This document shows, in pieces, positions 17,505-63,866 of a stretch of 64,000 nt of DNA (its first letter is position 1; each line of letters begins with the position of its first letter). The stretch is from Alphaproteobacteria bacterium (GTDB taxonomy: Bacteria; Pseudomonadota; Alphaproteobacteria; UBA828), in assembly GCA_965214705.1 (NCBI GenBank), contig OZ243972.1:512001-576000 (forward strand), given 5' to 3'. The notes under the pieces were generated by a model. The model saw only the letters and a program-made list of their open reading frames with translations. It did no database searches and was not told the DNA's origin. The translations under genes were made by a program, and so were the position numbers.

Positions 17505-17571
17505 GCCATTTCTCCTGCGTCGGCCGGGCCCGCTTGAGTATAGTCGCGCGCGCAAATCGTTTGGAGGCGTC

Positions 17572-19452: not shown

Positions 19453-19524
19453 CCGCCGGCCACGACAGCCGCGCCGAGCGGGCCGCCTGGGCGGCCACGG
19501 CGGGCACCATTATCAATTGGGGAA

Positions 19525-37115: not shown

Positions 37116-37198
37116 CCCTCTCCTCCCGGGCGGGGAGGAGAGGGAGAGAGGGCGGCGCCACCTGCGCTCCCCCTCCGCCTTGTTAGAGGGGAGGGGGA
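37116..37198. repeat. Pair of REP-like CCCTC/GAGGG hairpins
   Basis: CCCTCTCCTCCC-gggcg-GGGAGGAGAGGG (37116-37144) and TCCCCCTCC...GGAGGGGGA. Confidence 0.6.
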
Positions 37199-37908: not shown

Positions 37909-38189
37909 GGCGGGGATGTGCTCGCGGGCTGTTCGTTGGCTCATCCCGCGATGCTGCCCCGCGCCGCCCGCGCCTTCCACCGCACCATGTTGCGGGCTAC
38001 CGGGTCCGAGTCCGAGCCCCGCGCGGCCTTGGACGAAGCGTCCGGCAAGAAAGGCCGGGCCGCAGGCCCGGACGGCGCGACAGCGCCGCGCGCGTATGCG
38101 CGGAGCGCACGATCGCTCACGGCAGCTGGCCTGGGGCCGGTGCCTCCGCGTCGCGTGGCCTAGAATTCCCATCAGGGGGCCGCGCGTCC

Positions 38190-47458: not shown

Positions 47459-49217
47459 AGAGCCCGTGGACGTACCAGCGGGGCGAGGCCTCGGCATCGC
47501 CGCCGTCATCGCCGTAGAGCCCGGCGCGGTAGAGCCAGTAGCGCCGGCCCTCTGCGTCCTCGACGCGGTAATAATCGCGCACCGCCTCGTCCCGCCCGCC
47601 GGCGCCAGCCCACCATTCCGGCTCGATGCGCTCGGGCCCGGCGGCGCGGGCGACCCGGCGGCGCACCCGCCGCCAAGTGAAGAGCAGGGGCGGGCCGTCC
47701 GGCACCTCGGCCATCACGTCTATCGGCTCGGGCCGGTCGAACAGGCGGAAGGGCCGCTGCGGCGCCGCAGGCGCTTCGGACACCGCGCGCCAGGGCGCAG
47801 GCTCCCGGCCGGGGGGCACCGCCCGCTCCGCCGTCTCCGGCCTGTGTCGGGCGACCGGCTCCAGCCGGCAGACGGCGCCGTCGCCGAGCTTTGCCAGCAG
47901 GCGATCGACCAGCAGGTCCACGCCGCCCTGCCGCCGTCTGTCCCCGGTGAGGGAAAGCTGCGCGGGCGCGAGCGGCTCGACGCGCTCGGCGTGGAGTGCC
48001 GCAAGATCGATGCCGAAGCCGGGATCGATGGTCTCCAGCGTCTCCCGGAAGAGGCGCAGCAGGTGATCGCCGTCCCTCGTCGCGCGCGCCGTTGCCACCG
48101 CGCGCCGCACCACGCCGCCGTCCACCCGGTAGCACCAGAGCGCGAGCCGGCGGACGCCGAGCCCGTCCCGCTCCAGGGACACGGTGAGCCCCGGCATGAG
48201 CCGGGCCAGCATCGCATCCAACCCCGCCCGGTCGATCAGGGGTTCCGGCAGGGACAGGCGCTCCAGGCAGGCGGGCGGCGGGGCCAGGGGCACGATCGGC
48301 TCGGCGAACCGGCCCAGCGCCCGGTCGAGACGCGCGAGCACCGCGCTGCCCCGCTCCCGGCTGGGGAAGCGGCGGGCGAGCGACGCGCGCGGCAGGCCGT
48401 CCACCGCGCCGATGGTGACCAACCCCAGGCGCCGCAGCAGGTGGGCGTCCTCGGCCGCGAGCCTCAGCCCCTCGACCGGGAGGTCCGCGATCGCCGCACG
48501 GGCCTCGCCGGGCGCGGCGATGCGTGCGTCCGGACGACCGTTCGCTGCCGGGCCGAAGCGAGCCAATGCCCAGGCGGCGCCCGGCGTGTCCGCGAGGCCC
48601 AGGCGGTTCTCGATGCCCAGGCCCGCGAGTCGCGCCGCGATCTCGTCCATGAGCGCCGCCTCGCCGCCGAAGAGGTGGGCGCAGCCCGTGATGTCGAGCA
48701 GCAGCCCGCCGTCGCCGCTATCGCCACAGCCGTCGTCGCTGCCGTCCACCGCGCACCAGGGCGTGAAGCGGTTGCACCACAGGGCGAGCCGCTCGAGCCC
48801 CTGCCGGTCCGCCGCCGCATCGGCGCGCGCGGTCACCAAACCGGCGAGCAGGGCGCGGGCATCGGCGAGGCGCATGCCGGGCCTCAGTCCCTTTGTGCCG
48901 GCCTCGCGGTTGACCGCCCACAGCACCGGCCCGCGCCGACCGGGTGCGACCAGCGCAAAGGGGACCGGTGTGGTCGAGTTTTTGTCGCTCACGGCGGCCG
49001 GCCTGCGGCCGGCGCCTGCCGCGAGGGCGCCGCATTCGCGGCGGGCCGCGGTCGCGGCCTGTCGCGAGCCCGTCAAGGACGGCCTCGCTCTAGCCTCAGC
49101 CGCCGGCGTGTGCGCGGCCTCGGGCTCGGCGCGGGGCCTCGATCTCGCTCGCGCTCGCTCGCGGCGTAGCCGGTCGATCGGCCAGCGCGGCAGCCATATG
49201 GAAATCACCCGTCTCAC
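47451..49217 (-). CDS. imuB: Y-family polymerase-like ImuB
   Basis: RVISIWLPRW, GMRLADARA, LLDITGCAHLFGGE, GPERIEPEWW, RDYYRVED, WYVHG. Confidence 0.92.
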   Translation of the reverse strand: MRRVISIWLPRWPIDRLRRERARARSRPRAEPEAAHTPAAEARARPSLTGSRQAATAARRECGALAAGAGRRPAAVSDKNSTTPVPFALVAPGRRGPVLWAVNREAGTKGLRPGMRLADARALLAGLVTARADAAADRQGLERLALWCNRFTPWCAVDGSDDGCGDSGDGGLLLDITGCAHLFGGEAALMDEIAARLAGLGIENRLGLADTPGAAWALARFGPAANGRPDARIAAPGEARAAIADLPVEGLRLAAEDAHLLRRLGLVTIGAVDGLPRASLARRFPSRERGSAVLARLDRALGRFAEPIVPLAPPPACLERLSLPEPLIDRAGLDAMLARLMPGLTVSLERDGLGVRRLALWCYRVDGGVVRRAVATARATRDGDHLLRLFRETLETIDPGFGIDLAALHAERVEPLAPAQLSLTGDRRRQGGVDLLVDRLLAKLGDGAVCRLEPVARHRPETAERAVPPGREPAPWRAVSEAPAAPQRPFRLFDRPEPIDVMAEVPDGPPLLFTWRRVRRRVARAAGPERIEPEWWAGAGGRDEAVRDYYRVEDAEGRRYWLYRAGLYGDDGGDAEASPRWYVHGLYG

Positions 49218-49968
49218 GGTTCCACTCCACCTCGCAGATCGCAGGCCGCCCGCCGCGCGCGCGCACAAGCGCGAGGCGCCAGCGGGGCAGGCCGGGCGCG
49301 CTCTCGTCGAACGGATCGGCGCGGCTCGGCAGCGCCGCCACCCGCCAGCGCGTGAGCGCCGCGCTCGCCGGGCCGAGCGCGTCGTGGCGCAGCAGCAGCG
49401 CCGGCGTCGCGCCTTCGGCCGCAGCGAGCGCGAGGCGCCGGCTGGCGACGAAGGGGATGCCCTCGGCCTCGGCCAGCACCGCCGTGAGCGCACCGCAGCG
49501 CAAGCCCTCCTCCATCGCCCAGGGCACGTCCTTCTCGCGGCGGGCGCGGAGGATCAGCAGGTCTGCCGGCTCCAGGCCGAGGTCGCGCCAGCCCGGCCCG
49601 TGGAGGCGGCCGAAGCGGGCGGCCCCGCCCCGGCTCTGGCAGACCAGCACCGCGCCGCGCTCGCCGGCGCGCGCATGCCGGGCCAGCAGTGCCGCGAGAA
49701 AGGCGGCGGCGGCCGGCCCGTCCGCAGCATTCGCGCCCGCGGCCTCGTGCAGGCCGTCAGGCGCGAGGCCGCCCTCCGGCAGGGCGCCGTCCAGGGCATC
49801 GATACCGAGCGGCCAGGGCCGCCCCGCCCGGCTTCCGACAGTGGCGCCCTCCAGCGCGGCCGGGCGGCGTTCGAGCGCCGCGATGCGCCGCCGCAGCGCT
49901 GCCAGATCGACAGTGCCGTTGCACGGGGACCCGACTCGCATCGGGGATATGGGGCGAGAGGCGCTCAT
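49096..49968 (-). CDS. imuA: ImuA (RecA/SulA-like)
   Basis: LGIDALDGALPEGGL..GLHE, WAMEEGLRC, SRRLALAA, SAALTRWRV. Confidence 0.9.
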   Translation of the reverse strand: MSASRPISPMRVGSPCNGTVDLAALRRRIAALERRPAALEGATVGSRAGRPWPLGIDALDGALPEGGLAPDGLHEAAGANAADGPAAAAFLAALLARHARAGERGAVLVCQSRGGAARFGRLHGPGWRDLGLEPADLLILRARREKDVPWAMEEGLRCGALTAVLAEAEGIPFVASRRLALAAAEGATPALLLRHDALGPASAALTRWRVAALPSRADPFDESAPGLPRWRLALVRARGGRPAICEVEWNRETGDFHMAAALADRPATPRASASEIEAPRRARGRAHAGG

Positions 49969-49972: not shown

Positions 49973-50005
49973 GTTCACTATTTGTTCTTTTACAAGACCT
50001 GTCAA
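49973..50005 (-). promoter_or_regulatory. Alphaproteobacterial LexA box overlapping the imuA promoter
   Basis: GTTC-ACTATTT-GTTC (49973-49987); TTGACA (50000-50005, minus) N17 AATAGT. Confidence 0.88.
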
Positions 50006-50066
50006 GCCACGCGTGCCGCCCCATCGGTGGTGGGGCGGCATTTTGGAAATGTCACTCACGGTGAAG

Positions 50067-50214
50067 ATTGCGGAATCAGGCCGGGCGGGGAAATGGGCGC
50101 AATATCAGCACTCTAGCGGCTGCCAGCGACAACGGACGGAGGCCGCGCTTCCTCAATTGTGGAATCGTGCCAATTCAGGCGGTTAGCGCATATTGAGGAA
50201 TCCGATGGGGAATC
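50067..50214 (+). repeat. Dispersed ATTGNGGAATC repeats (candidate transposase-binding sites)
   Basis: Copies at 50067, 50156 and 50192; degenerate copy at 50204; inverted partial TTCCTCAAT at 50149. Confidence 0.6.
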
Positions 50215-50276
50215 GCTTCGCCGGATGGGACCCTGCCTGTTTCCCTCGCCACACCGCCCGTGCAAGGACCATGCAA

Positions 50277-52372
50277 CCCATCTTTGCCATTTTGGCGCGC
50301 GCCTGCGACCTAAGTAGTTGCGATGATGGGCTGATTTTCTGGCCCATCTGGGATTATGGCACTACGTTTGTGCGCTCATCGCGACACTCCCGGGAGCACC
50401 GCCCGGCGCCTGTGGGGATCCACCGTGAGGCCCGCCGCCTGCGCGATGACGCGCGCCTCGGCGTCGGGTTGAGCATCCTGGCGGATGACGATGCGGTTTC
50501 CGTCCACCTCCCGGATGGTGGAGGTGAGACGCACCCAGCCCGCGAGCTTGTCGCGGATCGTACTCCAGCGGTCATGCAAGCCGTGCGCCGCCAGACGGGT
50601 TCGCAGCAGATGAACCGCGTGGTAGGCGAGGACGGCGATGAACAGGTGGGCGGCGATGCGCGAGGTCTTGGAGTGCCAGACCGGGCGCAGGCCGATTTCG
50701 GATTTCAGGCTGCGGAAGGTGGCCTCGAGCTCTGTGAGCTTCCAGTAGGTTCGGACCACGGTTTCAAGATCCCACTCGACGTGGCTGGTGCGCAGCACAT
50801 AGATGCCCGCTTGGCGGTCGCGCTCGGCATGGAGAGCGTTGCGCCTCCAGCGGACCGCACTGGCCCGCCCCTTCTCTCCGGGCTCGACCTCGATGTCGTA
50901 CTGACGGTGGACGCGCCTGTACCTTTCCTTCAGCCGGCCCAGCTTCTCCATCACCTTGGTGAACTGCTTGATGTGGTTCTTCTTCGACAGCCCGCCATGC
51001 AGGGCGCGCAGGGCGTCCTCGAAGTTGTGACGCTGACGGGCGAGCACGGCCTCGTCCTTCTGCTGGCGCTCATGGCTCCAGACGCACAGGTGCGCTTCGT
51101 CGTCCCCTGCCGCGAGACGCCAGGCGCGGGCATCGTGGCCGGCCCGGGTTTCGAAGGCGGCATCGGCTTCGCGCCCGGGCGGCGCCGAGACGCCGCGGCG
51201 AACGGTGATCCAGTGATAGCCGCCCGCCCGCAGCCAGGCGAGGTTGGCCTCGGTGGAGATGCCGGCGTCCATGATGACCGTGGGCCTGGGGGCGTTGCTG
51301 CCGCGCGCTTGGCATTCCAGCCGCCCGATGGCGTCGGCGAGAGTGGCCGGCTCGGAGATGTTGCCGGGCAGGATCTCGCTGTGCTGCGGAAAGCCGGCCT
51401 GGTTCAGCGACAGGGCCAGGGTCACGATCGGACAATCGTCACGCCTCTGCTTCGAGCGCCCGAAGCGGGCCAGCGCGGAGCTGGGCCGTCCGGTCATATG
51501 GGTGTTGGTCAGGTCGAAGAAGACGATGGTGTCGGGGATGCCGAAGAGATCGCGCTCCCGGGCGCACAGCGCCTCTTCAAGCGCCGCGCGGTGACGCCAC
51601 AAGAGGTCGCCGATGCGGTAGAGCTTACTGAGCGTGAGCGACTTGCCGCTGTCGACATCGAGCAACTCCAGGGTCGCGCTGTTCGCGCTCAGCCAGCGGA
51701 AGGCCTCGCGCTCGCTGGAGGGATGGATCATGCGCGCGACCACCAGTGCCGCCGCGATGCGTGCGTCGCGCTCACTTGCGCCCAGCCTCTCCAGCGTCTC
51801 GATGAAGCGAAGGTCGTCAAGCGCGGCGAGAGCCAGGCGCTCGCAGCCCACCGAGCGGACCTGTTCGTGGGAGAGGCTATCGAGACGGACCGTGGCCAGG
51901 TCGCTCTCGTCCCCGGGCCGCGACGCGCCGAGATCGCGGGCGTGAAGCCGCCGTACGACGTCCTCGGCGACGGGGCGCAAGGCGGCATCCGGCTCCAGCA
52001 GCGGCTCGCTGCCGGCGAGAAGGGTTTCGATCAGAAGCGCCAATTCGCGCCATTGCTCCTCGGGCACACCGAAGTCGGCGCCGAGATTGAGGAGCGTGAC
52101 CTGGCGCACCCTTCCGCCGATGCGTTCGCTGCGCACGAGGCGGTAGGTGGCATAGCGCTCGCCACCGTCTCCGCGACCGGTGAGGGTTTTGCGAATGAAC
52201 ATGGCGGCAGGGTCACGGACAGTTTGCGGACTGTCAAGGAGCGCCGGCCCACAGACCAAAGATTATGGCACTACAATGGACTTCCCAAAACACAATCCAA
52301 CAAAATCAGTGCCTTAGATCCCAAAGGCTACCCAAAATCAGGCCTTCGGGACCGAAAAGTGGCAAAGATGGG
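50277..52372 (-). mobile_element. IS1634-family insertion sequence, copy A2
   Basis: Same IRs and length as 153-2248; 4-bp duplication GCAA (50273-50276, 52373-52376). Confidence 0.92.
50376..52202 (-). CDS. IS1634-family DDE transposase
   Basis: Same protein as 323-2149 apart from EVESG vs EVEPG. Confidence 0.92.
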   Translation of the reverse strand: MFIRKTLTGRGDGGERYATYRLVRSERIGGRVRQVTLLNLGADFGVPEEQWRELALLIETLLAGSEPLLEPDAALRPVAEDVVRRLHARDLGASRPGDESDLATVRLDSLSHEQVRSVGCERLALAALDDLRFIETLERLGASERDARIAAALVVARMIHPSSEREAFRWLSANSATLELLDVDSGKSLTLSKLYRIGDLLWRHRAALEEALCARERDLFGIPDTIVFFDLTNTHMTGRPSSALARFGRSKQRRDDCPIVTLALSLNQAGFPQHSEILPGNISEPATLADAIGRLECQARGSNAPRPTVIMDAGISTEANLAWLRAGGYHWITVRRGVSAPPGREADAAFETRAGHDARAWRLAAGDDEAHLCVWSHERQQKDEAVLARQRHNFEDALRALHGGLSKKNHIKQFTKVMEKLGRLKERYRRVHRQYDIEVEPGEKGRASAVRWRRNALHAERDRQAGIYVLRTSHVEWDLETVVRTYWKLTELEATFRSLKSEIGLRPVWHSKTSRIAAHLFIAVLAYHAVHLLRTRLAAHGLHDRWSTIRDKLAGWVRLTSTIREVDGNRIVIRQDAQPDAEARVIAQAAGLTVDPHRRRAVLPGVSR

Positions 52373-52641
52373 GCAAGAGCGTTTTGCTCTCCTGAAACAG
52401 CTATCCGGCGCCTCCGTCGGGTGCGAGAGTGATTCGCCCGAGAGCCTCTCCGCTGGCGAAGGCGGGACGAGGCCGGGTGAGAACTCTCCGAAGCTGGAAG
52501 CGCCAGCGCTATGCGCTTGCTGCATGCGTGGCGTCCGTCGGGCCGCCCATGAGCGCGGCTATCCGGGTGCTGACCCGCCGGTCTCAGTCGACGCAATCAA
52601 CTCGTTGGCAAGCGCAACGAGACGGGCCGCCCTCTCCTTGA

Positions 52642-54801
52642 CCCAAGTTGGCACTTTTTCCGACCAGCCGAGCCTGTTCGAGCCAGTTTTGCGGCGCTGA
52701 ACCACTAGATGTTGGGGTTGGAGGACACCTGAGACCCACATTTGCCATTCGTGGTCCTGGAAGCCAATTGTGGGGCCAGGACTTTGGAGTTGAGTCGATA
52801 TCCCTCTTGCCAGATGCCGCGAACGCCGTGTATGCGAAACAGGCATCGCAGAAACGGCGCCGCCATGTACATCAAGGCAACCAGGACACACACCGACAAG
52901 GCCGGCCAGCCGGTCCGAAGCCATCGCCTCGTGCTCGCCCAGCGCGTCGGCGACAAGGTGCGCCACAGGACGCTGCTCAATCTCGGCACCGACTATCCGG
53001 TGCCGCGCGAGAAGTGGAAGGCCGTCACCGAACTCGCCGAGGCGCTGCTTCACGGCAAGCCGCCGCTGTTCGAGGGCGAGGCGGATGTGCGGGCCGCAGC
53101 CGAGGACATCGTCGCCAAGCTCAGGGCCAGGGGGTTCCGCGTCGAGGCGATGCAGGAAGAGGCGCGCAAGCCCGACATCGCCACCGTCGACCTCGATACC
53201 CTGGAGCACGAGAACCCGCGCACGGTCGGCTGCGAGCGCCTGTGCCTCAAGGCCCTCGACGCCCTCGGCTTCGCCGAAATCCTCCACGGCCTCGACATCA
53301 AGGGCCGCGACGGGCGCATCGCCAGCGCGCTGATCGTCGCCAGGATGGTCCATCCCGCCAGCGAGCGTGATACCAGCCGCTGGCTCCGCCACGACAGCGC
53401 GGCCGCCGAGCTCCTGGGCCTGGAGGGCGACCGCAAGGCGCTGCGGCGCAAGACGCTCTACCGCATCGGCGACCTGCTCTGGCGCCACCGCGCCGCCATC
53501 CAGCGGGAGCTGTTCAACCGTGAGCGCGCACTGCTCGACCTGCCCGAGACGATCGCCTTCTACGATCTCACCAACGTCCACTACCACGGCCACACGGGCG
53601 GCGAGCTTCCCAGGTTCGGGCGCTCCAAGCAGAAGCGCGACGACTGTCCCCTCATCACGCTGGCGCTGGCGCTCGACGGCGCGGGCTTCCCGCGCAGTTG
53701 CGAGATCCTGCCGGGCAACGTGAGCGAGCCGGGCACGCTGCACGAGGCGCTGGCGCGGCTCGAGGCGGTGTGCGGCGGCACGGCGCCGAAGCCCACGGTG
53801 GTCATGGACGCGGGCATCGCCACCGAGAAAAACATCGCGTGGCTGGGCGAGCAGGGCTACGACTGGATCGCGGTCAGCCGCGGTGCCAGGCCTGCGCCGC
53901 CCGAGGGCGGACCCGAGGCCCTGCTGATCACCAGCGCGCGCCACGAGGTGCGGGCCTGGCGGCTTGCCAGCGAGGACGGCGAGGCGCGGCTCTACGTCGT
54001 CAGCGAGGGCAAGAAGAAGGCCGAGAACGCGATCATCGGCCTGAGGCGGAACCGCTTCGAGGCGGCGCTGGAAAGGCTCCACGGCGGCCTTGCGGTCAAG
54101 GGCCGCCTCAAGCGCTACGACAAGGTGCTGGAGAGCATAGGCCGCCTCAAGCAGCGCTTCTCCGCCGTCGCCAGGCACTACGAGATCACGGTCGAGAGGG
54201 CGAAAACCGGCCCCAATGCCACCGCCGTGCGCTTCAAGCGCAGGCCGCGATACGACGAGGCCGATGAGGGCGCCGGTGCCTATGTGCTGCGCACCAGCCA
54301 CGTCGACTGGGACATCGAGACGGTCCTGCGGACGTACTGGCGGATCACGGATATCGAGGCGACATTCCGGAGCCTGAAATCCGAGCTCGGCCTTCGCCCG
54401 ATCTGGCACCAGCTCGACCGGCGCATCGCGGCCCACCTGCTGATCGCCGTGCTGGCCTACCACGCCGTGCATCTGATCCGTACCCGGCTGGCCGCGCGCG
54501 GCATCCACAAGTGCTGGGCGTCGATCCGCGAGAGCATGCGGACCTGGGTGCGGATCACCACGCGCCTGCGCCAGACCGACGGCACCTTGATCGTCAACCG
54601 CCAGGACACGCGCCCGGCCGCCGAGGTTGCCGCAATCTCCTCGGCGGCGGGCGTGGACCCCGCCATCCACCGCACGAGGACCCGTCTGATGAGCTGACAG
54701 AATCTCACAAAATGTGGGGCCATGTTGGAATCGACCGAGAAAAATATCGCGTTGAATCAAACCAATAGGGAACACAGGCAGCGGAAAAGTGCCAACTTGG
54801 G
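52642..54801 (+). mobile_element. IS1634-family insertion sequence, type B
   Basis: 17-bp IR CCCAAGTTGGCACTTTT; 4-bp duplication TTGA (52638-52641, 54802-54805). Confidence 0.92.
52865..54697 (+). CDS. IS1634-family DDE transposase (diverged paralog)
   Basis: FYDLTN, FGRSKQKRDD, VMDAG, EATFRSLKSELGLRPIWH. Confidence 0.92.
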   Translation: MYIKATRTHTDKAGQPVRSHRLVLAQRVGDKVRHRTLLNLGTDYPVPREKWKAVTELAEALLHGKPPLFEGEADVRAAAEDIVAKLRARGFRVEAMQEEARKPDIATVDLDTLEHENPRTVGCERLCLKALDALGFAEILHGLDIKGRDGRIASALIVARMVHPASERDTSRWLRHDSAAAELLGLEGDRKALRRKTLYRIGDLLWRHRAAIQRELFNRERALLDLPETIAFYDLTNVHYHGHTGGELPRFGRSKQKRDDCPLITLALALDGAGFPRSCEILPGNVSEPGTLHEALARLEAVCGGTAPKPTVVMDAGIATEKNIAWLGEQGYDWIAVSRGARPAPPEGGPEALLITSARHEVRAWRLASEDGEARLYVVSEGKKKAENAIIGLRRNRFEAALERLHGGLAVKGRLKRYDKVLESIGRLKQRFSAVARHYEITVERAKTGPNATAVRFKRRPRYDEADEGAGAYVLRTSHVDWDIETVLRTYWRITDIEATFRSLKSELGLRPIWHQLDRRIAAHLLIAVLAYHAVHLIRTRLAARGIHKCWASIRESMRTWVRITTRLRQTDGTLIVNRQDTRPAAEVAAISSAAGVDPAIHRTRTRLMS

Positions 54802-55171
54802 TTGAGAGTTCGCGCTTCGCTGTGCAGCGCAAGTGCGGTGTCTCTCACCGGCGAGCAGCCGGCGTCGGTAGCGCGAGAGGATGCGACAATCGCGGCGGCC
54901 AGGGCCTCGACTTCCGCCCTCAGGGCAGGCTCGGCAGCCATGCGTGCGTCGACCCGTGCCCAGGCGTTCACGACCGTCTTGCGGTCGCGGTCGCCGAATT
55001 CGCGGCCGATCTGTGTCGGCGCGTGCTGCGTCAGCTCGCGGCAAAGCCACATGGCGATATGGCGCGGGGCAGACACGTCCCGTGTCTTGCGCGCAGAATC
55101 GAGATCGTTGACCGTTACGCCATAGTGCTCGGCTACCCGCGCCTTGATCGCGGCGATGATTGGCTGGCCGC

Positions 55172-55651
55172 TCATGCGGCGCCACGCCCAGGGCCGTTAC
55201 CACCGCGCGCCTTGCCCTTCTCCCGGTTGTTCATCGCCCGCAGGGCCCGGATGATCCGCTCCGCCTGGTGCTCGGTGACGAAGCGCAGCGCCGAGACCCT
55301 GAAGGTGCGCTCCAACCACCTGTTCAAGCCGCTTTCGCCGCCCTCCTCCGTGGCGTACGCACCCCACAGCTCGCGGATCAGCGTCACCTGGGCCGGCGTC
55401 GCCATGCCGTCCCGGTGCGTGTAGAAGGTCCTGGTGAAGTCGGAGCGGAAGCCCAGCGCCATCATCGCCTTCATGACGTACTCGAAGCCGGTCCGGTCCA
55501 GGTCCTTCGCGCTCTCCACGCCGGCCATCTTGCGCAGGATGAAGCGGTAGCGCTCGTCGCTGAGCCCGAGCTGCTTCCGGGCCACGTGGATCAGCGCGGT
55601 CTGCTTCCTGGTGAGCGCCCCGGATCGAGCGGCCTTCCGCCGCTCGCTCAT
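55172..55651 (-). CDS. Mu GemA / DUF1018-family regulatory protein
   Basis: LIHVARKQLGLSDERYRFIL...GVESAKDLD...GF, ATPAQVTLIRELW. Confidence 0.85.
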   Translation of the reverse strand: MSERRKAARSGALTRKQTALIHVARKQLGLSDERYRFILRKMAGVESAKDLDRTGFEYVMKAMMALGFRSDFTRTFYTHRDGMATPAQVTLIRELWGAYATEEGGESGLNRWLERTFRVSALRFVTEHQAERIIRALRAMNNREKGKARGGNGPGRGAA

Positions 55652-56385
55652 TCGGCTCCTCCGAAGATGCCGGCGGCCTGCTTCAGGTGGACGAACCTGA
55701 TGTCGCCATCGCCCGCCAGATCGCGCCCGACGTCCAGCAGCATTCCCGCTTGACGGAGACCCGACTTGCCTTCGTTCCATTTCTCCAGGAAGGCGATCGC
55801 CCTGGGCTCGTGCACACCGGCATGGCGCGCGAACGCGTCCAGGTCGGCCCCGGTCGATGCCTTGATGTAGAGCTTGGCTCCGATGCGCGAGGCCAGCTGA
55901 TCGAACGCAGCGGCGCGCACGGTGTTGAAGCGGCTGCCCAGGCTCGCGTTGCCGAGGAAGACCAGGGGAACCCCGGTTTCGTCGTGGATGCAGCGCAGCT
56001 GATCGATGTTCCGCGCGTTCAGGTGCTGCGCTTCGTCCACCAGAAGCACCGTCACGCGGTCGTCCGCGATCGCGTTGCAGATGACCTCGTGGAGCTCGAC
56101 GGTGCGGAAGGGCACCCTGCACGAATAGAAGGCCCCGCAGACCAGGCTCAGCATTCCCGCCATGGTGTCGTGCAGCGGGTCCATGACGCAGTAGCGCGCA
56201 CGCCCGACACGCCTCGCATAGTCCCGCGCCGCCGTCGTCTTGCCGACTCCGGGCTCGCCGACCACGCTGCCGATGCACCCCAGCCGCTGCGTAAACTCGA
56301 TCAGCCGCCGGATGTCGCCCACGGTCTGTGTCTCGCAGAGGGCAGGGCGCTCGTCGCTCTCGATCAGGTTCAGGGCTTCAGGCAT
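55648..56385 (-). CDS. MuB-like AAA+ transposition ATPase
   Basis: GEPGVGKT, LLVDEAQHL, LRCIHDETGVPLVFLGN, QLASRIG. Confidence 0.88.
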   Translation of the reverse strand: MPEALNLIESDERPALCETQTVGDIRRLIEFTQRLGCIGSVVGEPGVGKTTAARDYARRVGRARYCVMDPLHDTMAGMLSLVCGAFYSCRVPFRTVELHEVICNAIADDRVTVLLVDEAQHLNARNIDQLRCIHDETGVPLVFLGNASLGSRFNTVRAAAFDQLASRIGAKLYIKASTGADLDAFARHAGVHEPRAIAFLEKWNEGKSGLRQAGMLLDVGRDLAGDGDIRFVHLKQAAGIFGGAE

Positions 56386-57906
56386 GGAAGGACTCCGGGA
56401 TCGACCGTTGGCATGCGGCTGCCGGCGCGGACGCTCGGCAGGAGGCGTGCGCCCTCATCCGTTCGCCCTCCGCCGCTGCAGGAGGGCGTCGATGGCCCGA
56501 CGCCGATCGTCGCTCATGCCGCCGCTCTCGGCCGGCGCGGGACGATCCGGTGCCCGTTCACCACGCTTGGCGAGGGACTCGTCCTGCGCGTTGCGCGTTG
56601 CCTCCCGCCGGCGCTCCTCGCGGGCGGCCCTGGCGGACTCGAAGCTCTTGCGCCCGGCCGGCGTGCGCTTGGCTTCGCGGGCGATCTCCTCCAGGGTTTC
56701 GCCCATGCCGACAAGCGCACCGCGCTCCGGGATCGGGTTCGCCTCCGCCTCGGACACTGACGGAGCCATGAGCGCCTCCATGTCGACGTGCGGGGTCTCT
56801 TGCCGCAGGGTCTTCATCGCCGAGGTGGCCACGCGGCGGCGCCTGGCAGCCTCCCGCGCCCCGCGCGGATCGAGCGCGTCATAGGGTGTGTCGGCCTCCG
56901 CCATGCACAGGAACCCGCCACTTTCGTCGAGGACCGCGAGACGGTCCATGGGGCCGTACAGCGGAACGCGCACCTCCACCTTGCTGCGCGCCGGCACCGA
57001 CCAGAGGGCCTCTGCCGTGTAGATTGCGCCTGCCAACCTGAAACGTCCCTGCCAGAGCGTGCGCGTCGCCGGCCGGCTGAACACGACCCGGAGCACGTCG
57101 GGATCTATGTCCGTGCGCGTCCATCCGTCATCGACGACGGCGGCGGCAAAGGCCTCGTCGGGAGACCGGCCACGCAGGAAGCCCTCTTGCGGTTGCCGGT
57201 TGTACCAGGCCAGCCCCTCGGCGACTCTGCGGGCGAACGCCTCGTCGTCGAGCGGGTTCGGTTCCGGCGCGCGGCCCACGTTGGCCGTCTTCTTGCGCAT
57301 GCGGTTGCCGCCGATGTAACCGGGAAAGGTCGAGAACACGCCCCGGTCCAGGGCAGCGAACGCGCCTTCGATTGCCTTGGCGGCCGCGTTATAGGGCAGG
57401 GCCTTGATGACGGCGCTGGGACGCTCCCGGAAGCGGCTGGCAACCGCGTCGTCGTCGTCCAGATACCGCACCTTGCAGAGCTGCATGGCGTCGTCGACGA
57501 ATTCGCTCCAGTTGTACTCGCCGCCGTTGTCCAGATAGAGAAGCTCGGGCATTCCCCATCGCGGGTCGCTCACCATCTCAATGAAGGACTCGATGACGTG
57601 CTCCTGCCGTATGCCCTCGCCCTTGCGCGGGTGGACGACGGAGCCACAGATGCGGTTCGTTCCCCAGTCGATCCAGCCGATGAGCTTGGCCGTGCAGGGG
57701 CTGCCGTCCGCGCGGCGCCTGTGGATATCCATTACCTTCACGTCACCGATCACGGCCTTCATGGGCCGCCAGTCCTCCCGGCTGCGGAGGATGCGGGGCA
57801 TGCTCTCGTCGAACCAGCGCTTGTGGTCGTTCTCAAAGGTGTCGAGATGCCGCCTGGGCGCCGCGCGCTCCACTAGGCCGCGGCTTACCGTGCAGAGTCG
57901 CTTTAG

Positions 57907-59108
57907 GGAAAGTCTGAACAACCCCATCTTGGCGGCTTCGAGGGGGAGAGGGGGCTTGGATTTGAAGCTCGACGATATTGCCGGCAGGCCGGGGGCTGCT
58001 TTTGTCGCGGGATACGGAGCGAACGGGCGATATCCGCGTCGATCCGCCGCATTCCCCGTCGTCCCGCCGGCGGCGGGCGGACTGCTCCCCTGTCATTGCG
58101 TCGCGTAGCGGCCGGCGATCAGCAGGTTCGAGAACCCCAGCAGCAACGCGATGCGCTGCCTGTTCTTCGCCACGCCCCGGTAGCGCACCTTGGCGTAGCC
58201 GAAGTGCCGCTTCACGTACAGGAACGGATGCTCCACCTTCGCCCGCACCGACGCCTTGCGCGTCTCGGCCGCCGCTTCGGCGCCACCCCCGGCCAGCAGC
58301 CGGCGCCGCCCCGGCTTCATCGCCACACGCCACTCGACACCGCCATCCCGGTGCTCGGGACGCTTCTCCACCCCCTGGTAGCCCGCGTCGCCCCACGCCG
58401 TCGTCTCAGCGCCATGCAGCAGCGCTCCCGCCTGCGTCACGTCGCTTGCGTTGGCCGCCGTCGTCACCACGCTGTGTGCCAGACCCGACCCGGCGTCCAC
58501 CCCGATGTGCGCCTTCATCCCGAAATACCACTGCTTGCCCTTCCTCGTCTGACGCATCTCAGGGTCCCGTGCGCGGCGCCGGTTCTTCGTCGACGACGGC
58601 GCCTCGATGATGCTCGCGTCAACGATCGTCCCCGTGCGCAGCCAATGGCCGCGCGACGCCAGGTGCGCATTGATCTCCTCGAACAGACCCTCGCCCAGGC
58701 CGTGCTTCTCCAGAAGATGCCGGAAGTTCAGGATGGTGGTCTCGTCAGGCAACGCCTCCGCCAGCCGCAGCCCCACGAAACGCCGCACCGACTCCACCTC
58801 GTAGAGCAGGTCCTCCATCCCCGGATCGCTCAGGTTGTAGAACAGCTGCACGCAGTGAACGCGCAGCATCACCGCAAGCGGGTACGGGCGCCGACCGCGC
58901 CCCGCCTTCGGATAGAACGGCTCGATCCGCCGTTCCAGCCGCTCCCAGGGAACCAGCTTGTCCATCTTCTCCAGGAACAGCTCGCGCCGCGTCCGGCGCT
59001 TCTTCAAGTCGTGCTCCAGTTCCGAAAAGCTCGCCTGTGCCATGACCCGATCATCCAATCTGCGACTCCTACGAAAATCATGGCACACCCGACTTGATCA
59101 GACCTTCC
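57907..59108 (-). mobile_element. IS5-family (IS5 subgroup) insertion sequence, 1202 bp
   Basis: IRs GGAAAGTCTGAACAA / GGAAGGTCTGATCAA; duplication TTAG (57903-57906, 59109-59112). Confidence 0.93.
58093..59043 (-). CDS. IS5-family transposase
   Basis: KKRRTRRELFL, PDETTILNFRHLLE, VDASII, FGMKAHIGVD, RAKVEHPF. Confidence 0.95.
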   Translation of the reverse strand: MAQASFSELEHDLKKRRTRRELFLEKMDKLVPWERLERRIEPFYPKAGRGRRPYPLAVMLRVHCVQLFYNLSDPGMEDLLYEVESVRRFVGLRLAEALPDETTILNFRHLLEKHGLGEGLFEEINAHLASRGHWLRTGTIVDASIIEAPSSTKNRRRARDPEMRQTRKGKQWYFGMKAHIGVDAGSGLAHSVVTTAANASDVTQAGALLHGAETTAWGDAGYQGVEKRPEHRDGGVEWRVAMKPGRRRLLAGGGAEAAAETRKASVRAKVEHPFLYVKRHFGYAKVRYRGVAKNRQRIALLLGFSNLLIAGRYATQ

Positions 59109-59915
59109 TTAGCTGCCTCGTGCCGGGGTTGAAGCCTGCCTCCGCGGTCTTCTTCGCCAGCTCGGCGCTGACGGCGCGGGCTATGCGGCGCCAGCCCCAA
59201 TCCAAGCTCTCCGCGTAGATGGAGCCGGAAAGCTCAATTGCCCACGCTCGGAATGACGCCTTGACCTCGTCATCGAAGGGGACGGCGGCATCCCACGCAC
59301 GCGAGATAAAGACGCCGGGTCGCCCCCGGTTCGGCCGGCTCGCAGGAAGCAGGCCGGCCAGGTCCTCCCGTTCGTAACCGGCCAGCCAGCGCCGGACCGT
59401 GCGCGACGAGCATCCGGCGGAGCGTGCCGCAGCATCGACCGCCTTTGCACGTTCAGGCGAGCCGGGCGCGCACTGCAGGATCGGGCGAATGATCTCGTAA
59501 CGCTCGTGGGCCCTGGAGGTTCGCCAGCCCTTGTCGGCCAGGGCCGGCAGCGCTGCGGCGACAGTCCGAGGCGAATGACCTTGTGCCGAAGGCGCGCACG
59601 GGATGCGTGCCGGGAGAGCGGCGCCTCGATCGCTCGGCAGGGGCGCAGATGCAGGCGAAGGCTCCGGCAATGCCGGCGGCGCTGCGGTGGCTGCCTCGGC
59701 TGCCCGGAGAGCCTGTGCCAGCTCTTCCACACGATCCCTTGCACCCACCATGACCTTGCCGCCATTGCCGCCGGGCCCGCGTGACCAGCGCACGCCAAGC
59801 GGGATGCCGTGTAGCGGCTTTCCCTTCAGGTCGCAGCGGAAATAGTTTCTCGCCGTTCGGGTGGATACGCCCCAGATGCCAGCGGCGATCGACGAGGATA
59901 CCCACTCCGCCGGCA

Positions 59916-60173
59916 TCACGCGGCCTTGCCTGGCTCGTCCCCTGCCCGAGGCGCGGGGCGCGGGATGTCGGCGGGCCACTCAAGATCGGCGGGCCAGCGG
60001 GCGGAGATGCGTTGCACGATGCGCTCGGCCCGGCGCCCGGTGATATCGTGGCCGGCCACGAGGCGGGCGTACAGGTCGCCGCTGCCACTACAGCGCAACG
60101 ACATCGTCGACGGCGCGCAACCGGCTGCCTCCGCCGCGCGCTCGATAAGGACGATCAGGTGTCGGTGCCACAT
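59916..60173 (-). CDS. Cro/Ner-like small phage DNA-binding protein
   Basis: 85 aa, divergent from the repressor, WPADLEWPADIPRP tail, TGATG-coupled to the transposase. Confidence 0.7.
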   Translation of the reverse strand: MWHRHLIVLIERAAEAAGCAPSTMSLRCSGSGDLYARLVAGHDITGRRAERIVQRISARWPADLEWPADIPRPAPRAGDEPGKAA

Positions 60174-60184
60174 ATGACACGAAA

Positions 60185-60237
60185 TGCCATAACTAGCAAT
60201 TCATGTCAACCGTTGATGTGATGTGCTATTTCTAGCA
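60185..60237. promoter_or_regulatory. Two palindromic operators between the repressor and the cro-like gene
   Basis: TGCCA-TAAC-TAGCA (60185-60198) and TGCTA-TTTC-TAGCA (60224-60237), flanking a minus-strand TTGACA (60204-60209). Confidence 0.65.
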
Positions 60238-60242
60238 TCGTC

Positions 60243-61067
60243 ATGACTCGCGCCATGGAGAGACTCCAGGCCTCGATCCGGAAGGCTCTGGACGAGCGCC
60301 GCACCAACCCGTCCAGCGTCGCTCGCACCGCCGGCCTGCCGCAACGTGCGCTCTACAACGTGCTTCACGGTCACGTTCCGTCGCTGGATCGGGCTGCCGA
60401 AATCTGCGAAGCCCTCGGTCTCGAACTGTACGTTGGGCTCCCGCCTGAGTCGGAGGAGGCCCAGGTCAAGCGCTTCGTAGGCAGTGTCATTCGCCAGACG
60501 AGCGAAGCTGCCACTGTCGATGACCTGAGACGGGACTTGCGCGGGTTACTCTCCGGAATCGACGAATTGCGCGCAGACATAGCGGCGCTGAGAGGCGAGC
60601 CGGCGCTTTCCGTTCTGGAATGGTCCAGCGACGAGAGCTTGCCACGCGGGGCGCACCCCGTGGGAGTGGTCAAGCTCGCCGCAATGGCCGGGGGCGGGGT
60701 GGATCAGGCGAGTGAGGACGTTACCGGCTGCATCTGGTTTCGCCGAGACTGGCTGGAAAGCCACGGCCTCGATCCCGAGCGCTGCGCGGTCATCGGAGTC
60801 AGAAGCGACTCGATGGCGCCGACGTTGCCGGACGGTTGCTCGATCCTGGTCGATCGTTCGAGCGTCGAGTGGCGGCTAGAACATGTGTACGTGCTGCGCA
60901 CCGGCGACGGCCTCGTGGTGAAGCGTGCCGGTGCGCGGGAGGACGGCAGCCGCCTGTTGGTGTGCGACAATCCTGCGTCTGAGCCAGAGCCGTATCCCGA
61001 CGACGCGGACATCTTCGGCCAAATCGTCTGGGCCGGACGGGCGATCATGGAGGCCATCAGCGAATAA
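60243..61067 (+). CDS. CI-like repressor: HTH + peptidase S24
   Basis: N-terminal HTH (PSLDRAAEICEALGL), Ala-Gly site (AMAGGG), DSMAPTLPDG, VVKR. Confidence 0.88.
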   Translation: MTRAMERLQASIRKALDERRTNPSSVARTAGLPQRALYNVLHGHVPSLDRAAEICEALGLELYVGLPPESEEAQVKRFVGSVIRQTSEAATVDDLRRDLRGLLSGIDELRADIAALRGEPALSVLEWSSDESLPRGAHPVGVVKLAAMAGGGVDQASEDVTGCIWFRRDWLESHGLDPERCAVIGVRSDSMAPTLPDGCSILVDRSSVEWRLEHVYVLRTGDGLVVKRAGAREDGSRLLVCDNPASEPEPYPDDADIFGQIVWAGRAIMEAISE

Positions 61068-61149
61068 CGGGCTTGGTCTCGCTCCGTGGAGGCGGCCTGC
61101 TTAAGCTGGCTTGCGGGATCGAGGCGGACTGCAGACCGAGCGCCGTCTC

Positions 61150-61728
61150 TCACTCGAGAGAGGCTGTCGTGAACACCGCGCCGCCCAAGATCGAGCGCGT
61201 CGCCCCAGCACGCTGCATCGCCACCGCGAAGGGGTTGTCGCGGCAGGCATCCAGGATGATCAGACGAAGGCCCTTCGCCCGTTCCACGGCGCGGGAGAGC
61301 AGATCGAGCGGCACCGCCTCGAACTCCACGTCGGCATCGCTCAGGAGACGGGCGTCCACAGGGATCAGGAAGTTGCGCTTGTCCACCTCGATGCCGTGGC
61401 CCGCGTAGAACACCACCGCCATCTCCGAGGCGGATGCGGCGAGACTGAACTTCTGGAGACCGTCCCACAGCTCCACCCGGCTCGCGTTCGGGAGCTGAGT
61501 GACCGCGAAGCCGAGGCGCTCCAGGGAGGCACCGATGTCGGTCGCGTCGTTGAGGGGGTTCGCCAGCGACGGCGCATGGGCATACGACGCATTGCCGATC
61601 ACTAGCGCCACGCGCTGGCCGGCCGAGGCGGGTGCAGTGAGCGCACACATCAGCAGGATCGCAGAGGCGACAAGAATCGGCCAGGGGCTCCGCCCGTGGA
61701 CCCCGGAGGTAAAGAGGTAAGGACTCAT
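61150..61728 (-). pseudogene. Truncated caspase-like (peptidase C14) paralog
   Basis: Near copy of the caspase domain of 61725-63866 (YAGHG, LDACR); similarity stops near 61189. Confidence 0.8.
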
Positions 61729-63866
61729 GGGGTGAGCGTCCGGGAAACCCGAAACCCGACGAGGTCGCCGCGGACCTCGGTGGAAGCCTCGTTGCGGCCA
61801 GCTGAGCGGAGGACCCACGGATTGAGCCAGGAACCGCCGCGAAGAACGCGCTTCTCGCAATCACCTCCCGACACCCAAGCGCTTCCAGCGGTGGGCGCGC
61901 CCGCGTAGCTATCGTGCCAGCAATCCTCAACCCACTCCCACACGTTGCCGAGCATGTCCGACAGTCCAAACCCGTTCTCGCCGTAGCTGCCGACTCGCGC
62001 CGCATGGATCGAACCATCCCGACACGGTGCAGGCTCAGGCTCCCAATCGTAGTCAAATTCCGCCTTGGCCGTACGGTCATAGCCGTTGGCGTGATCGCAT
62101 TGCGCCCCAACGTCGTCGCCCCAATAGCGAGAAGTGCGCGTCCCCGCCCGTGCCGCATACTCCCACTCCGCCTCCGACAGGAGGCGATAGCGCTCCCCGG
62201 TCTTCCGCGACAGCCAGCGCACATACGCCTTCGCATCATCCCAGCTCACGTTGATCACGGGACGCCGCCCCCGGCCCCAGCCTTGGTCATCCGGCCGATA
62301 GCCGTTGCAACCGCCCGCCGCCACGCACGCATCCCACTCCGCAAACGTCACCTCGTACTTGCCCACCGCGAACGGCGCCGGGATCGTCACCCTGTGCTGG
62401 GGGCCTTCGTCATCATCCCGCCCTTCCTCTGACGACGGCGAGCCCATCATGAACGAGCCCGCCGGCACCACCACCATCTCGGGGCACTCAGGGCAATCGC
62501 GGAATACCCGGCCCGGACGCATTGCCGCCTGCTTGCGCGACTCTTCCTCTCCTGCGGCCAGCAGCAGCTTGGCCGTCTCCGCGTCGAGATAGCCGGTCTC
62601 GTTACCGCCTTGGGACGATTGCCAACCGCCAATGGACGCGCGCGTGCGTTGCCCGAATAGCCCGTCCGCCGGACCGGGATCGAATCCCAGCGCAGCCAGC
62701 CCCTTCTGAATCTGCCGCCGCTCGTCGCGCTCCAGCCCCAGAGACGTCTCCACCATTTCGGGCGCGGGCGGCGCCGGCTCGGGCGATACCACCCGTTCCG
62801 GCTCGTCATGGGTCACCGCCACCTGAACGTCTGGCTTCTCATCTGGCGAGACAGTCAGCCGAGCGAGCCTGTTTCGCGCCAGAGCCTCGTAGGTGCCGCC
62901 GGGGAACTGCTCCAGATAGGCCCCGAAGTCGGCCGCGTGCGTGCTGTCCTTCACCGACTCCCAGAACACCCGTTCAGCGGCAAGTTCTTCCGCTGTCAGA
63001 CGCCGGTCGTTGCCAGGGACCACTGGCTCCGGCTTGGTATCCTCGGGGTCTGGTTTGACGATTGTCTCGGGTTCTTGCGGCTCGGGCAGCGCCGCCAGAT
63101 ACGCCCCCTCGCTCGAAAGGGAGCCGTAGACGAATGGCTCCTGACGCCCGCCCGTCGCCGCGAGCACCGCGTCCCGCACCTTTCGGAACATCAGGCCTAC
63201 CTCCAGCCCCGGCTCCTCCAGATGCTTCAGCAATGCCGAGGTGTAGGGGCTGTTGCGGCCATCGCCGTCCGCCGCGACCGTCCCCTCCTTCGCCGCATAC
63301 GCCACCAGCGTCTCGCCCGAGGGCTCCACGCTCGCCAGACCCCGCCCGATCGAGCGCGTCGCGCCCGAGCGCTGCATCGCCACCGCGAAGGGGTTGTCGC
63401 GACACGCATCGAGGATGATCAGACGAAGGCCCTTGGCCCGCTCCACGGCGCGGGAGAGCAGGTCGAGCGGCACAGTCTCGAACTCCACGTCGGCGTCGCT
63501 CAACAGGCGCGCGTCCACGGGGATCAGGAAGTTGCGCTTGTCCACCTCGATTCCGTGGCCGGCGTAGAACACCACCGCCATTTCCGAGGCCGAGGCCGCG
63601 AGGCTGAATTTCTGGAGACCGTCCCACAGCTCCGCCCGGCTCGCGTTCGGGAGCTTCGTGACCGCGAAGCCGAGGCGGTCTAGCGCCGCACCGATGTCGG
63701 TTGCGTCGTTGAGGGGGTTGGCCAGCGACGACGCATGGGCATACGACGCATTGCCGATCACCAGCGCCACGCGCTGGCCTGCCACGGCAGGGTTCACTAG
63801 GAGTGATAACGACGCGACGACCATCGTCATCATTGCTACTGATCTGAACACCTGCAACATCAGCAT
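61725..63866 (-). CDS. Secreted caspase-like (C14) + peptidoglycan-binding + FGE-sulfatase (SUMF1/CLec) protein
   Basis: Signal peptide, RVALVIGN, YAGHG, LDACR; GPADGLFGQRTRASI; CPEMVVVPAG, SEAEWEYAARAG, GNVWEW, RVLRGGSW, GFRV. Confidence 0.92.
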   Translation of the reverse strand: MLMLQVFRSVAMMTMVVASLSLLVNPAVAGQRVALVIGNASYAHASSLANPLNDATDIGAALDRLGFAVTKLPNASRAELWDGLQKFSLAASASEMAVVFYAGHGIEVDKRNFLIPVDARLLSDADVEFETVPLDLLSRAVERAKGLRLIILDACRDNPFAVAMQRSGATRSIGRGLASVEPSGETLVAYAAKEGTVAADGDGRNSPYTSALLKHLEEPGLEVGLMFRKVRDAVLAATGGRQEPFVYGSLSSEGAYLAALPEPQEPETIVKPDPEDTKPEPVVPGNDRRLTAEELAAERVFWESVKDSTHAADFGAYLEQFPGGTYEALARNRLARLTVSPDEKPDVQVAVTHDEPERVVSPEPAPPAPEMVETSLGLERDERRQIQKGLAALGFDPGPADGLFGQRTRASIGGWQSSQGGNETGYLDAETAKLLLAAGEEESRKQAAMRPGRVFRDCPECPEMVVVPAGSFMMGSPSSEEGRDDDEGPQHRVTIPAPFAVGKYEVTFAEWDACVAAGGCNGYRPDDQGWGRGRRPVINVSWDDAKAYVRWLSRKTGERYRLLSEAEWEYAARAGTRTSRYWGDDVGAQCDHANGYDRTAKAEFDYDWEPEPAPCRDGSIHAARVGSYGENGFGLSDMLGNVWEWVEDCWHDSYAGAPTAGSAWVSGGDCEKRVLRGGSWLNPWVLRSAGRNEASTEVRGDLVGFRVSRTLTP

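Follow-up and report, generated by a model that had tools for sequence, protein, structure and literature searches.

A 64,000-nucleotide (nt) stretch of an alphaproteobacterial genome of the GTDB lineage UBA828 (NCBI GenBank assembly GCA_965214705.1, contig OZ243972.1, positions 512,001 to 576,000 of the forward strand), referred to below as the window and numbered from its first letter, contains at 50031-61188 a Mu-type element that is probably a dead and rearranged copy, riddled with insertion sequences (ISs), of a compact, virion-less transposon lineage. When the three IS insertions are discounted, the element measures 5688 bp (5.69 kb). Within this unit, a repressor gene encoding a helix-turn-helix (HTH) and a Peptidase_S24 domain faces, in this order, genes for a cro-like protein, MuA, MuB, GemA and a protein of 150 amino acids (aa) made of DnaA domain IV, here called DnaA(IV), which are followed by 428 nt of non-coding DNA (Table 1). 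The window has a G+C content of ~70%, and genes were therefore told from chance open reading frames (ORFs) by the G+C content of codon positions, and checked against Pfam, NCBIfam and PHROGs. No head, tail, lysis, Mor or C genes were found within 50031-61188 by Pfam searches and ORF analysis, and the IS-free ORF analysis gave no further coding-like ORF within the element.

These observations confirm a preliminary description of the same DNA. Its ends, 50030 and 61190, fall within three bases of those given here, and its IS sizes of 2096, 2160 and 1202 bp were reproduced exactly by reading the boundaries. Its unit of ~5.7 kb, from which mor/C, lysis, head and tail genes were said to be absent, corresponds to the size computed after IS removal, and its ~0.4 kb of non-coding DNA with end-like repeats to the 428 nt, which hold three copies of GATTCCNCAAT. 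The operon described there as tightly coupled is so indeed: the cro-like and MuA genes overlap by 1 nt, the MuB and GemA genes by 4 nt and the GemA and DnaA(IV) genes by 4 nt, and a gap of 69 nt separates MuA from MuB.

Table 1. The Mu-type element and its surroundings, with positions as in the window.
Feature	Position	Strand	Evidence or remark
dnaE2	44138-47509	-	IMS/DNA_pol3_alpha domain matches for imuB-dnaE2 region
imuB	47451-49493	-	IMS/DNA_pol3_alpha domain matches for imuB-dnaE2 region
imuA	49096-49968	-	ImuA NF033429 5e-17
LexA box, alphaproteobacterial type, GTTCACTATTTGTTC	49973-49987	+	5 nt upstream of imuA start codon
Inverted 9-nt copy of terminus, GCCGCCCCA	50015-50023	.	7 nt outside element
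DnaA(IV)-side terminus ('right' end in the Mu sense)	50031-50055	+	outside inwards: TGGGGCGGCATTTTGGAAATGTCAC
Sub-terminal repeats GATTCCNCAAT, three copies	50067-50077, 50156-50166, 50192-50202	-	motif scan
IS-A, IS1634 family, 2096 bp, in non-coding tail	50277-52372	-	duplication GCAA; NF033559 5.1e-83
DnaA(IV) gene, 3' part severed by IS-B	52559-52641	-	ORF end after IS-B removal
IS-B, IS1634 family, 2160 bp, splits DnaA(IV) gene	52642-54801	+	duplication TTGA; NF033559 2.6e-76
DnaA-domain-IV-only gene, 5' part	54806-55175	-	PF08299 2.7e-22; TIGR00362 positions 348-435 only; PDB 1j1v 7e-13
gemA	55172-55651	-	PF06252 2.1e-22; phrog_286 5e-29
MuB-like AAA+ target-delivery ATPase	55648-56385	-	AAA_22 1.4e-15; phrog_296 'DNA transposition protein' 4.7e-37
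MuA-like transposase, C-terminal piece (catalytic core and C-terminus)	56455-57906	-	97% identical to intact P0001
IS-C, IS5 family, 1202 bp, splits MuA	57907-59108	-	duplication TTAG; NF033581 1.2e-99
MuA-like transposase, N-terminal DNA-binding piece	59113-59916	-	HTH_29, HTH_32, HTH_23, HTH_28
cro-like/ner-like first operon gene, 85 aa	59916-60173	-	phrog_7669 9e-21; no Pfam match
Divergent control region, cro-like/repressor	60174-60242	.	sequence
CI-type repressor, HTH and Peptidase_S24, 274 aa	60243-61067	+	PF00717 7.6e-14; HTH_26, HTH_3
Repressor-side end, 121 nt	61068-61188	-	outside inwards: (T)TGGGCGGCGCGGTGTTCACG
Caspase-domain gene, 5' fragment, cut by element	61189-61860	-	Peptidase_C14 profile positions 2-130 of 233 only

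Evidence that the compact form is a lineage comes from its relatives. With the C-terminal piece of MuA as query, 111 homologues were found, and a profile from an alignment of 35 homologues was then scanned against genomes, which led to 166 stretches confirmed by tblastn; the best 80 of these 166 loci were used. Among these 80, tblastn found GemA in ~40 loci and the DnaA(IV) gene in five only (L001, L002, L003, L009 and L013), all of them among the closest MuA relatives. Four of the five (L002, L003, L009 and L013) have the order MuA-MuB-GemA-(small ORF)-DnaA(IV) and then run into unrelated genes, namely isochorismatase in L002, IS1595, KilA-N and porin genes in L003, an S8 peptidase gene and a second MuA/MuB-type transposon in L009, and a gene for an MmeI-type restriction enzyme in L013. 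None of 54 flank proteins from L002, L003, L007, L008, L009 and L013 belongs to the PHROG head, tail, connector or lysis categories, and Pfam likewise showed no structural genes in the flanks. In a MuA tree of 72 rows (quick IQ-TREE; L008, identical to L007, and eight loci without a MuA call or with fewer than 550 aa were omitted), the window, L001, L002, L003, L007, L009 and L013 form one clade of seven rows with an SH-aLRT support of 99, and its sister clades carry Mu-type capsid (gpT), protease (gpI), MuF, Mor-type activators and tape-measure-like genes. The preliminary description had proposed a stand-alone mini-Mu transposon or satellite rather than a simply deleted prophage, a view that would fall if the closest homologues invariably belonged to full prophages in which late genes come after the DnaA-like gene. 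No such pattern was found. The compact form is a lineage, and the proposal is supported both by the clade and by the lack of structural genes in its flanks. A matching gene order from MuA to DnaA(IV) with variable flanks, as it had suggested looking for, is present in the four loci named above; the clean duplications expected along with it were not seen.

The extent of the relatives can be read in part from pairwise comparisons. L009 and L013 share ~6 kb at 82-87% DNA identity, starting at one base (TAGTGTGTACCG...) with different DNA to its left, and L002 and L003 are alike as far as ...CCGCCAATTCCTA and diverge in their right flanks. L007 and L008 are 100% identical copies of a 4146-bp element (8519-12664 in each) at two sites on chromosome OZ242015.1, which suggests recent mobility within the clade; they encode MuA (694 aa), small ORFs and a 73-aa ORF with an HNH motif, and have no MuB. 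In L003, a possible left terminus lies at 8541, where TGGCCCACGG follows TTTCC. A repeat search on L003, L009 and L013 returned only a solo inverted end in L013, and a fuzzy search for the left terminus of L009 and L013 in all loci and in the window found no right-end partner. Short-word BLAST of right ends against upstream DNA gave noise, and a 9-nt direct repeat in L003 (AATTCCTAA, at 3683 and 14362; E = 6.3) was taken as chance.

Several other arrangements stand beside or within these loci. In L009, another pair of MuA/MuB type (phrog_310 2.3e-34, phrog_296 1.2e-20) lies on the opposite strand in the region 14887-20644, together with AAA_25 helicase-like, Toprim/DUF3991 and S8 peptidase genes; this region directly adjoins the DnaA(IV) gene end and has probably taken the place of that element's own end. 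Just left of the element in L003, at 3746-8464, are genes of low G+C at third codon positions for a DNA methylase (706 aa) and a helicase-like protein (816 aa), which may be a restriction-modification island beside the element or its cargo; the MmeI-type enzyme likewise lies directly right of the L013 element. Outside the clade, many relatives, among them L024 (9740-18425), L050, L010, L011, L019, L023, L026, L045 and L055, are compact units that encode MuA, MuB, GemA, a Mor-like activator, a head protease, a capsid protein (gpT or E-like) and a tape-measure-like protein of 600-800 aa, after which host genes begin; within 10 kb, neither a terminase nor a portal gene was seen. Capsid-bearing relatives are present in isolates such as Rhodopseudomonas palustris BisB18, Microvirga sp. 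CF3062 and Methylobacterium strains.

The individual genes are recognizable as those of a Mu-type transposition system. Once IS-C is removed, MuA becomes a single ORF of 772 aa from the first start codon, or 751 aa from the Met that matches P0001, an intact homologue of 751 aa whose match to phrog_310 ('transposase') covers residues 46-709 (2.8e-51). The family profile of 35 homologues matches MuA structures (4fcy, 6e-7; 1bcm, 1.9e-4) and, better than these, the N-terminal domains of TnsB (7svw and 8rdu, 1.7e-13), and the acidic columns D323, D328, D394, E398 and E448 are invariant in the 35 sequences. Pfam Mu-transpos_C hits the window MuA under its cut-off (0.0048), as does Phage-MuB_C with MuB (2.9e-4), for which TniB is a weak match (0.0017). 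The first ORF of the operon, 85% identical to one at the equivalent position in L003, would be cro-like to judge by its position. Intact and near-identical counterparts of other genes exist elsewhere, with 94% (P0112) and 91% (P0113) identity for DnaA(IV) and 94% (P0118) for the repressor; the longest contig is 1,200,363 bp for both P0113 and P0118.

As for the ends, both termini start with TG when read from the outside inwards. The terminus at 50031 fits the terminal sites of relatives that lie beside LexA boxes (e.g., TGGGGCGGAAATCGCTAA in L055 and L058, and TGGGGGGGACATCGATAAATGTCGG in L030). Behind it, the motif GAKTCCNCAAT occurs three times, always on the minus strand and within 50067-50202, against 0.23 occurrences expected in the whole window and with 0 of 100 shuffles reaching three; L002 and L003 contain four GAGTCCSCAMT copies at the equivalent place. 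At the other side, the DNA homology between two caspase paralogues ends at 61189 (...CGATC), after which the sequence reads TTGGGCGGCGCGGTGTTCACG, and this stop sets the junction at 61188/61189. A k-mer search for terminal inverted repeats between the two non-coding ends retrieved one weak 14-mer only. Inverted copies of a terminus just outside the element occur in the window (50015-50039, both arms included) and in L013 (3595-3689), where the copy of the element's own end is 43 nt long, with 9 nt between the arms; they may be relics of abutted ends or chance. The hairpin at 50015-50039 was rejected as a terminator, there being no T-run after it on the operon strand.

Taken together, the element appears to work like the early region of Mu, and the missing virion genes set it apart from the phages. 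As in the early region of phage Mu and in laboratory mini-Mu constructs (Mud), whose make-up it has, a repressor faces a cro/ner-like gene that is followed by the A transposase, the B ATPase and GemA, and TG termini and sub-terminal repeats are present. The window element differs in that it belongs to a natural lineage and is not a construct, in that it has no Mor/C, lysis, head or tail genes, in its extra DnaA(IV) gene, in that the N-terminal DNA-binding part of its transposase is nearer to TnsB, in that no 5-bp duplication is visible in the window copy, and in its S24 self-cleaving type of repressor, which that of Mu is not. A DDE transposase with an AAA+ target-delivery ATPase is also found in Tn7, Tn552 and Tn5053-type transposons (TnsB/TniA with TnsC/TniB). 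In contrast to these transposons, the window element has GemA and a CI/Cro switch, and its relatives carry a Mu-type capsid (gpT) and protease (gpI); Pfam, NCBIfam and PHROGs revealed no TnsA, TniQ/TnsD or resolvase among the six element genes. In a plasmid collection, nine distant matches only were found, with 29-35% identity.

The repressor provides the CI-type switch of the preliminary description, its HTH and S24 domains being encoded divergently from the cro-like ORF. Besides its domain matches, it hits phrog_4 (7e-27) and phrog_6201 ('CI-like repressor', 9.5e-12), and its translation contains AMA-GGG, SDSM and VVKR, which we take to be the Ala-Gly cleavage site and, with the Ser of SDSM and the Lys of VVKR, the predicted S24 dyad. 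In these predicted features and in its domain order it resembles LexA and the lambda CI repressor, from which it differs by its greater length (274 aa) and by an insert of ~80 aa between the HTH and the predicted cleavage site. A 274-aa homologue elsewhere, P0118, indicates that the S24 form is not unique to this genome, and HTH+S24 repressors are also used by true Mu-like Rhodobacterales prophages of the same MuA family (cluster 12); the L003 repressor has only the HTH part in common (80% identity). Neither a sigma-70 consensus promoter, in a promoter scan, nor a LexA box was found in the control region at 60174-60242.

From these parts we infer the following course of events. The repressor, transcribed toward the near end, would hold the divergent operon off until activation of RecA by DNA damage leads the repressor to cleave itself, upon which the genes for the cro-like protein, MuA, MuB, GemA and DnaA(IV) would be transcribed. 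MuA would then bind the TG termini and probably the GATTCCNCAAT repeats, MuB would deliver target DNA, and the element would be copied by replicative transposition. Without head, tail and lysis genes, it would leave the cell only on plasmids or other phages.

The role of DnaA(IV) in this scheme is most likely that of a sequence-specific HTH accessory or regulator. After removal of IS-B, the ORF has the length of its 94%-identical homologue P0112, within a range of 141-158 aa among homologues, and DnaA domains I-III, with the AAA+ ATPase, are missing. Its gene occupies the place of the Mor-type activator (phrog_836) in capsid-bearing relatives. The window lineage reads RDRKTVVNA where E. coli DnaA has RDHTTVLHA, and VSAPRH in place of VARPRQ, at positions that presumably contact bases, and L002 and L013 keep RDH(T/S)TV. 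The repeat differs by sub-lineage together with this recognition helix, with GATTCC in the window and GAGTCC in L002 and L003. DnaA(IV) might thus bind the sub-terminal repeats as DnaA boxes, a possibility ranked second, since similar repeats occur in L007/L008 (GTCCGG/GTGCGG) and in L019 (GTCCGC), all without a DnaA(IV) gene, which makes MuA the likelier repeat binder. No PHROG family matches the window protein. Small proteins made only of the DnaA C-terminal HTH are likewise encoded in early operons of Bradyrhizobium phage ppBeUSDA76-2 and Rhizobium phage RHph_N28_2, with 38-40% identity to window DnaA(IV) over half of the protein; these temperate phages differ in being non-Mu-like and encode ERF, NinB and a PBSX-type terminase in that part of their genomes.

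A further trait of the MuA family is its neighbourhood to SOS genes. The window terminus at 50031 lies 43 nt from the LexA box of imuA, the first gene of imuA-imuB-dnaE2, and this box is the sole GTTC-N7-GTTC or GAAC-N7-GAAC match in the 64 kb. Among the relatives, lexA lies directly left of the element in 13 loci, with comEC, gltX and citrate synthase genes beyond (L010, L014, L019, L028, L029, L039, L042, L043, L052, L055, L056, L058 and L080), and recA in nine, with alaS beyond (L005, L006, L011, L023, L024, L034, L046, L048 and L050); ssb adjoins the element in L030, and L049 has a double box. The DNA to the left of MuA extends for 1.6 kb or more in 65 loci. In 24 of them, a LexA box match lies between 600 and 2300 bp upstream of the MuA start, in most cases at 900-1250 bp, where ~4 such loci would be expected from a background rate of 0.065 per 1.7 kb. 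Chance probably accounts for two of the 24 (L065 and L076), and L005 and L006 lie beside recA yet give no exact box match. Where a terminus is readable in relatives, it falls 7 to 42 nt beyond the box. One MuA clade of four rows with a support of 100 includes neighbours of lexA (L042), recA (L034) and ssb (L030), and such interleaving in well-supported clades argues for repeated insertion rather than descent. In L068 and L072, of a betaproteobacterial-type MuA branch, groES-groEL and not an SOS gene is next to the repressor side.

It is possible, if doubtful, that the MuA family homes to LexA operators and inserts 7-43 nt outside the SOS boxes of lexA, recA, ssb and imuA. The LexA box or bound LexA would then serve as a universal safe landing site, perhaps also as a gate that keeps the transposon end shut until LexA is removed upon DNA damage, and the window's clade would be an extreme, virion-stripped form in which DnaA domain IV replaces the Mor-type activator. 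Attachment-site targeting by Tn7 and the 'res hunter' behaviour of Tn5053 offer a parallel to such a site preference. To our knowledge, no transposon chooses its site by SOS boxes; a text search of literature that takes in few subscription journals retrieved no report of SOS-box targeting and no description of a virion-less Mu-type transposon or of a GemA-DnaA(IV) unit.

A number of findings weigh against the reading of the window element as a copy from a mobile, Mu-type lineage or against its link to SOS functions. The outer 5-mers on the plus strand are GGTGG and AGATC, i.e., there is no target duplication, so that insertion by transposition is only presumed for this copy, which, with MuA split by IS-C, cannot transpose. 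The two termini form an imperfect inverted repeat and are weakly alike, with a score of 8.5 as compared with 3.2 +/- 1.8 for random 45-mers, 0.8% of which match that score or better. A motif scan detected no inverted copies of the sub-terminal repeat at the repressor-side end, and the look-alikes there (GATCCCGCAAG and CAGTCCGCC) are oriented like the far-end copies, an uncommon arrangement for the binding sites of a transposase. With the intact transposase as tblastn query, 50,697 phage records gave no match at E <= 1e-5, so that the term 'Mu-like' relates only to similarity at the profile level. As regards the relatives, both ends could be fixed in none of them, and the identical L007/L008 pair shows no clean target duplication, with GCTTGT near both sides in L007 and nothing in L008. 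The whole 3823-bp contig of L001 contains, in this order, a DnaA(IV) ORF, MuA and the 5' part of gemA, and lacks both MuB and a switch; its odd order, including a short match to the 3' part of gemA at 677-727, could stem from a mis-assembly of repeated copies or be a different arrangement. Apart from the window, the clade members come from metagenome bins, some on short contigs (3.8 kb for L001, 6.3 kb for L002), and the flanks of all loci were covered to at most 10 kb, virion genes farther out lying beyond that scope. The S24 domain was not detected in the repressors of L003, L009 and L013, which makes SOS induction through the repressor a predicted feature of the window's sub-lineage only. 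Finally, the other members of the window's clade have no LexA box nearby, and the box lies at the DnaA(IV)-side end of the element in the window as opposed to the repressor-side end in the relatives.

The missing target duplication would be accounted for by the likely history of the flanks. The truncated caspase ORF (61150-61860) is cut at about codon 224 and is 89-92% identical to the N-terminal part of its neighbour, an intact tandem paralogue of 713 aa at 61725-63866 with Peptidase_C14, peptidoglycan-binding and FGE-sulfatase domains. The rest of the truncated paralogue was found by tblastn nowhere in the window and the far side of the element is the imuA promoter, from which it follows that the two flanks were originally non-adjacent. 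All three ISs retain intact 4-bp duplications, as simple insertions do, and none of them caused a rearrangement; an IS-mediated event behind the missing target duplication is thereby ruled out. The simplest history would be an insertion near the imuA LexA box, 43 nt away, as the wider family tends to do, followed by a deletion that the repressor-side end most likely made from its own position into the caspase paralogue. Adjacent deletion is a known outcome of intramolecular replicative transposition, and would explain both the missing duplication and the non-contiguous flanks. The ISs would have come last, killing MuA and clipping the DnaA(IV) gene, and with both genes split the window copy is dead.

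IS-A and IS-B are 68-82% alike across aligned stretches. A second, inverted copy of IS-A at window positions 153-2248 is 99.9% identical to it, indicating that this IS was recently active in the genome. The ~6 kb beside that copy (2249-8500) contain few recognisable genes, with a partial Exo_endo_phos and a weak NB-ARC match, and are possibly another foreign or decayed region.

An unlikely alternative, though the most serious one, is that the element is a phage satellite that combines Mu-type replication with a lysogeny switch and is packaged by a resident Mu-like helper, much as laboratory mini-Mu is packaged by a helper together with flanking host DNA. The repressor/cro switch that the lineage retains would be superfluous for a plain transposon; the sister lineages with a partial virion set (capsid, protease and tape-measure-like protein) and without terminase or portal within the distance covered are satellite-like, and helpers are plausible, since the MuA family also includes true Mu-like prophages equipped with MuF, terminase and lysozyme. 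Small size, a lysogeny switch and replication of its own, and the absence of most or all virion genes are shared with P4, PICI and capsid-forming PICI, and the retention of just capsid and protease in some relatives adds to the likeness. The window element nevertheless differs from these satellites in having no integrase, primase-replicase or helper-redirecting genes and in its replication, which would proceed by transposition, and the annotated parts of the window revealed neither a packaging signal nor a helper-interference gene nor a helper prophage. An ORF of the Mu gp27 small-terminase-like type does lie 12 kb away (37183-38193, 336 aa; Phage_Mu_Gp27 1.2e-22; phrog_426 small terminase 4.9e-25), but it sits among housekeeping genes beside radC, unlinked to the element, and no other phage genes were seen around it. 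The present data do not distinguish a 'satellite' from a 'stand-alone transposon'. A Pseudomonas helper-satellite pair (PMC4936722) was set aside as unrelated, the passages that describe it mentioning no transposase.

That the element is a one-off remnant of a complete Mu-like prophage, its late region deleted in this genome, is very unlikely and already largely refuted. Non-contiguous flanks and the lack of a target duplication mean that at least one deletion or rearrangement touched the element, and its decay is heavy, with three IS insertions. The rearranged junction, however, is at the repressor-side end and not where late genes would be, and at the opposite end, beyond the DnaA(IV) gene, the 428 nt of non-coding DNA with their repeats lead into a terminus that fits the family consensus. 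Moreover, six related loci are equally virion-less in unrelated contexts, and the IS-free size is close to that of the ~6-kb unit common to L009 and L013. Scarcely credible, and already disfavoured, is a domesticated and immobile host module in which MuA, MuB, GemA and DnaA(IV) are kept for a DNA-damage role beside imuABC: the element adjoins the imuA LexA box in the same direction of transcription as imuA-imuB-dnaE2 and many relatives lie beside lexA or recA, but its IS-broken genes are under no purifying selection in this genome, other clade members have no SOS gene nearby in their unrelated contexts, and the interleaving of lexA-, recA- and ssb-adjacent relatives in supported MuA clades speaks for repeated insertion.

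Nearly all that is known of Mu-type replication comes from complete phages and from mini-Mu constructs made in the laboratory. A naturally occurring lineage with only a switch, the A and B transposition genes and GemA, of which the window element would be a dead member, would show a virus shrinking to a plain transposon or a satellite. The adjacency to LexA boxes is a statistical pattern; if real, it would be a new mode of target choice by a transposon, and would connect mobile DNA directly with the SOS response as well as with the mutagenesis operon imuABC.

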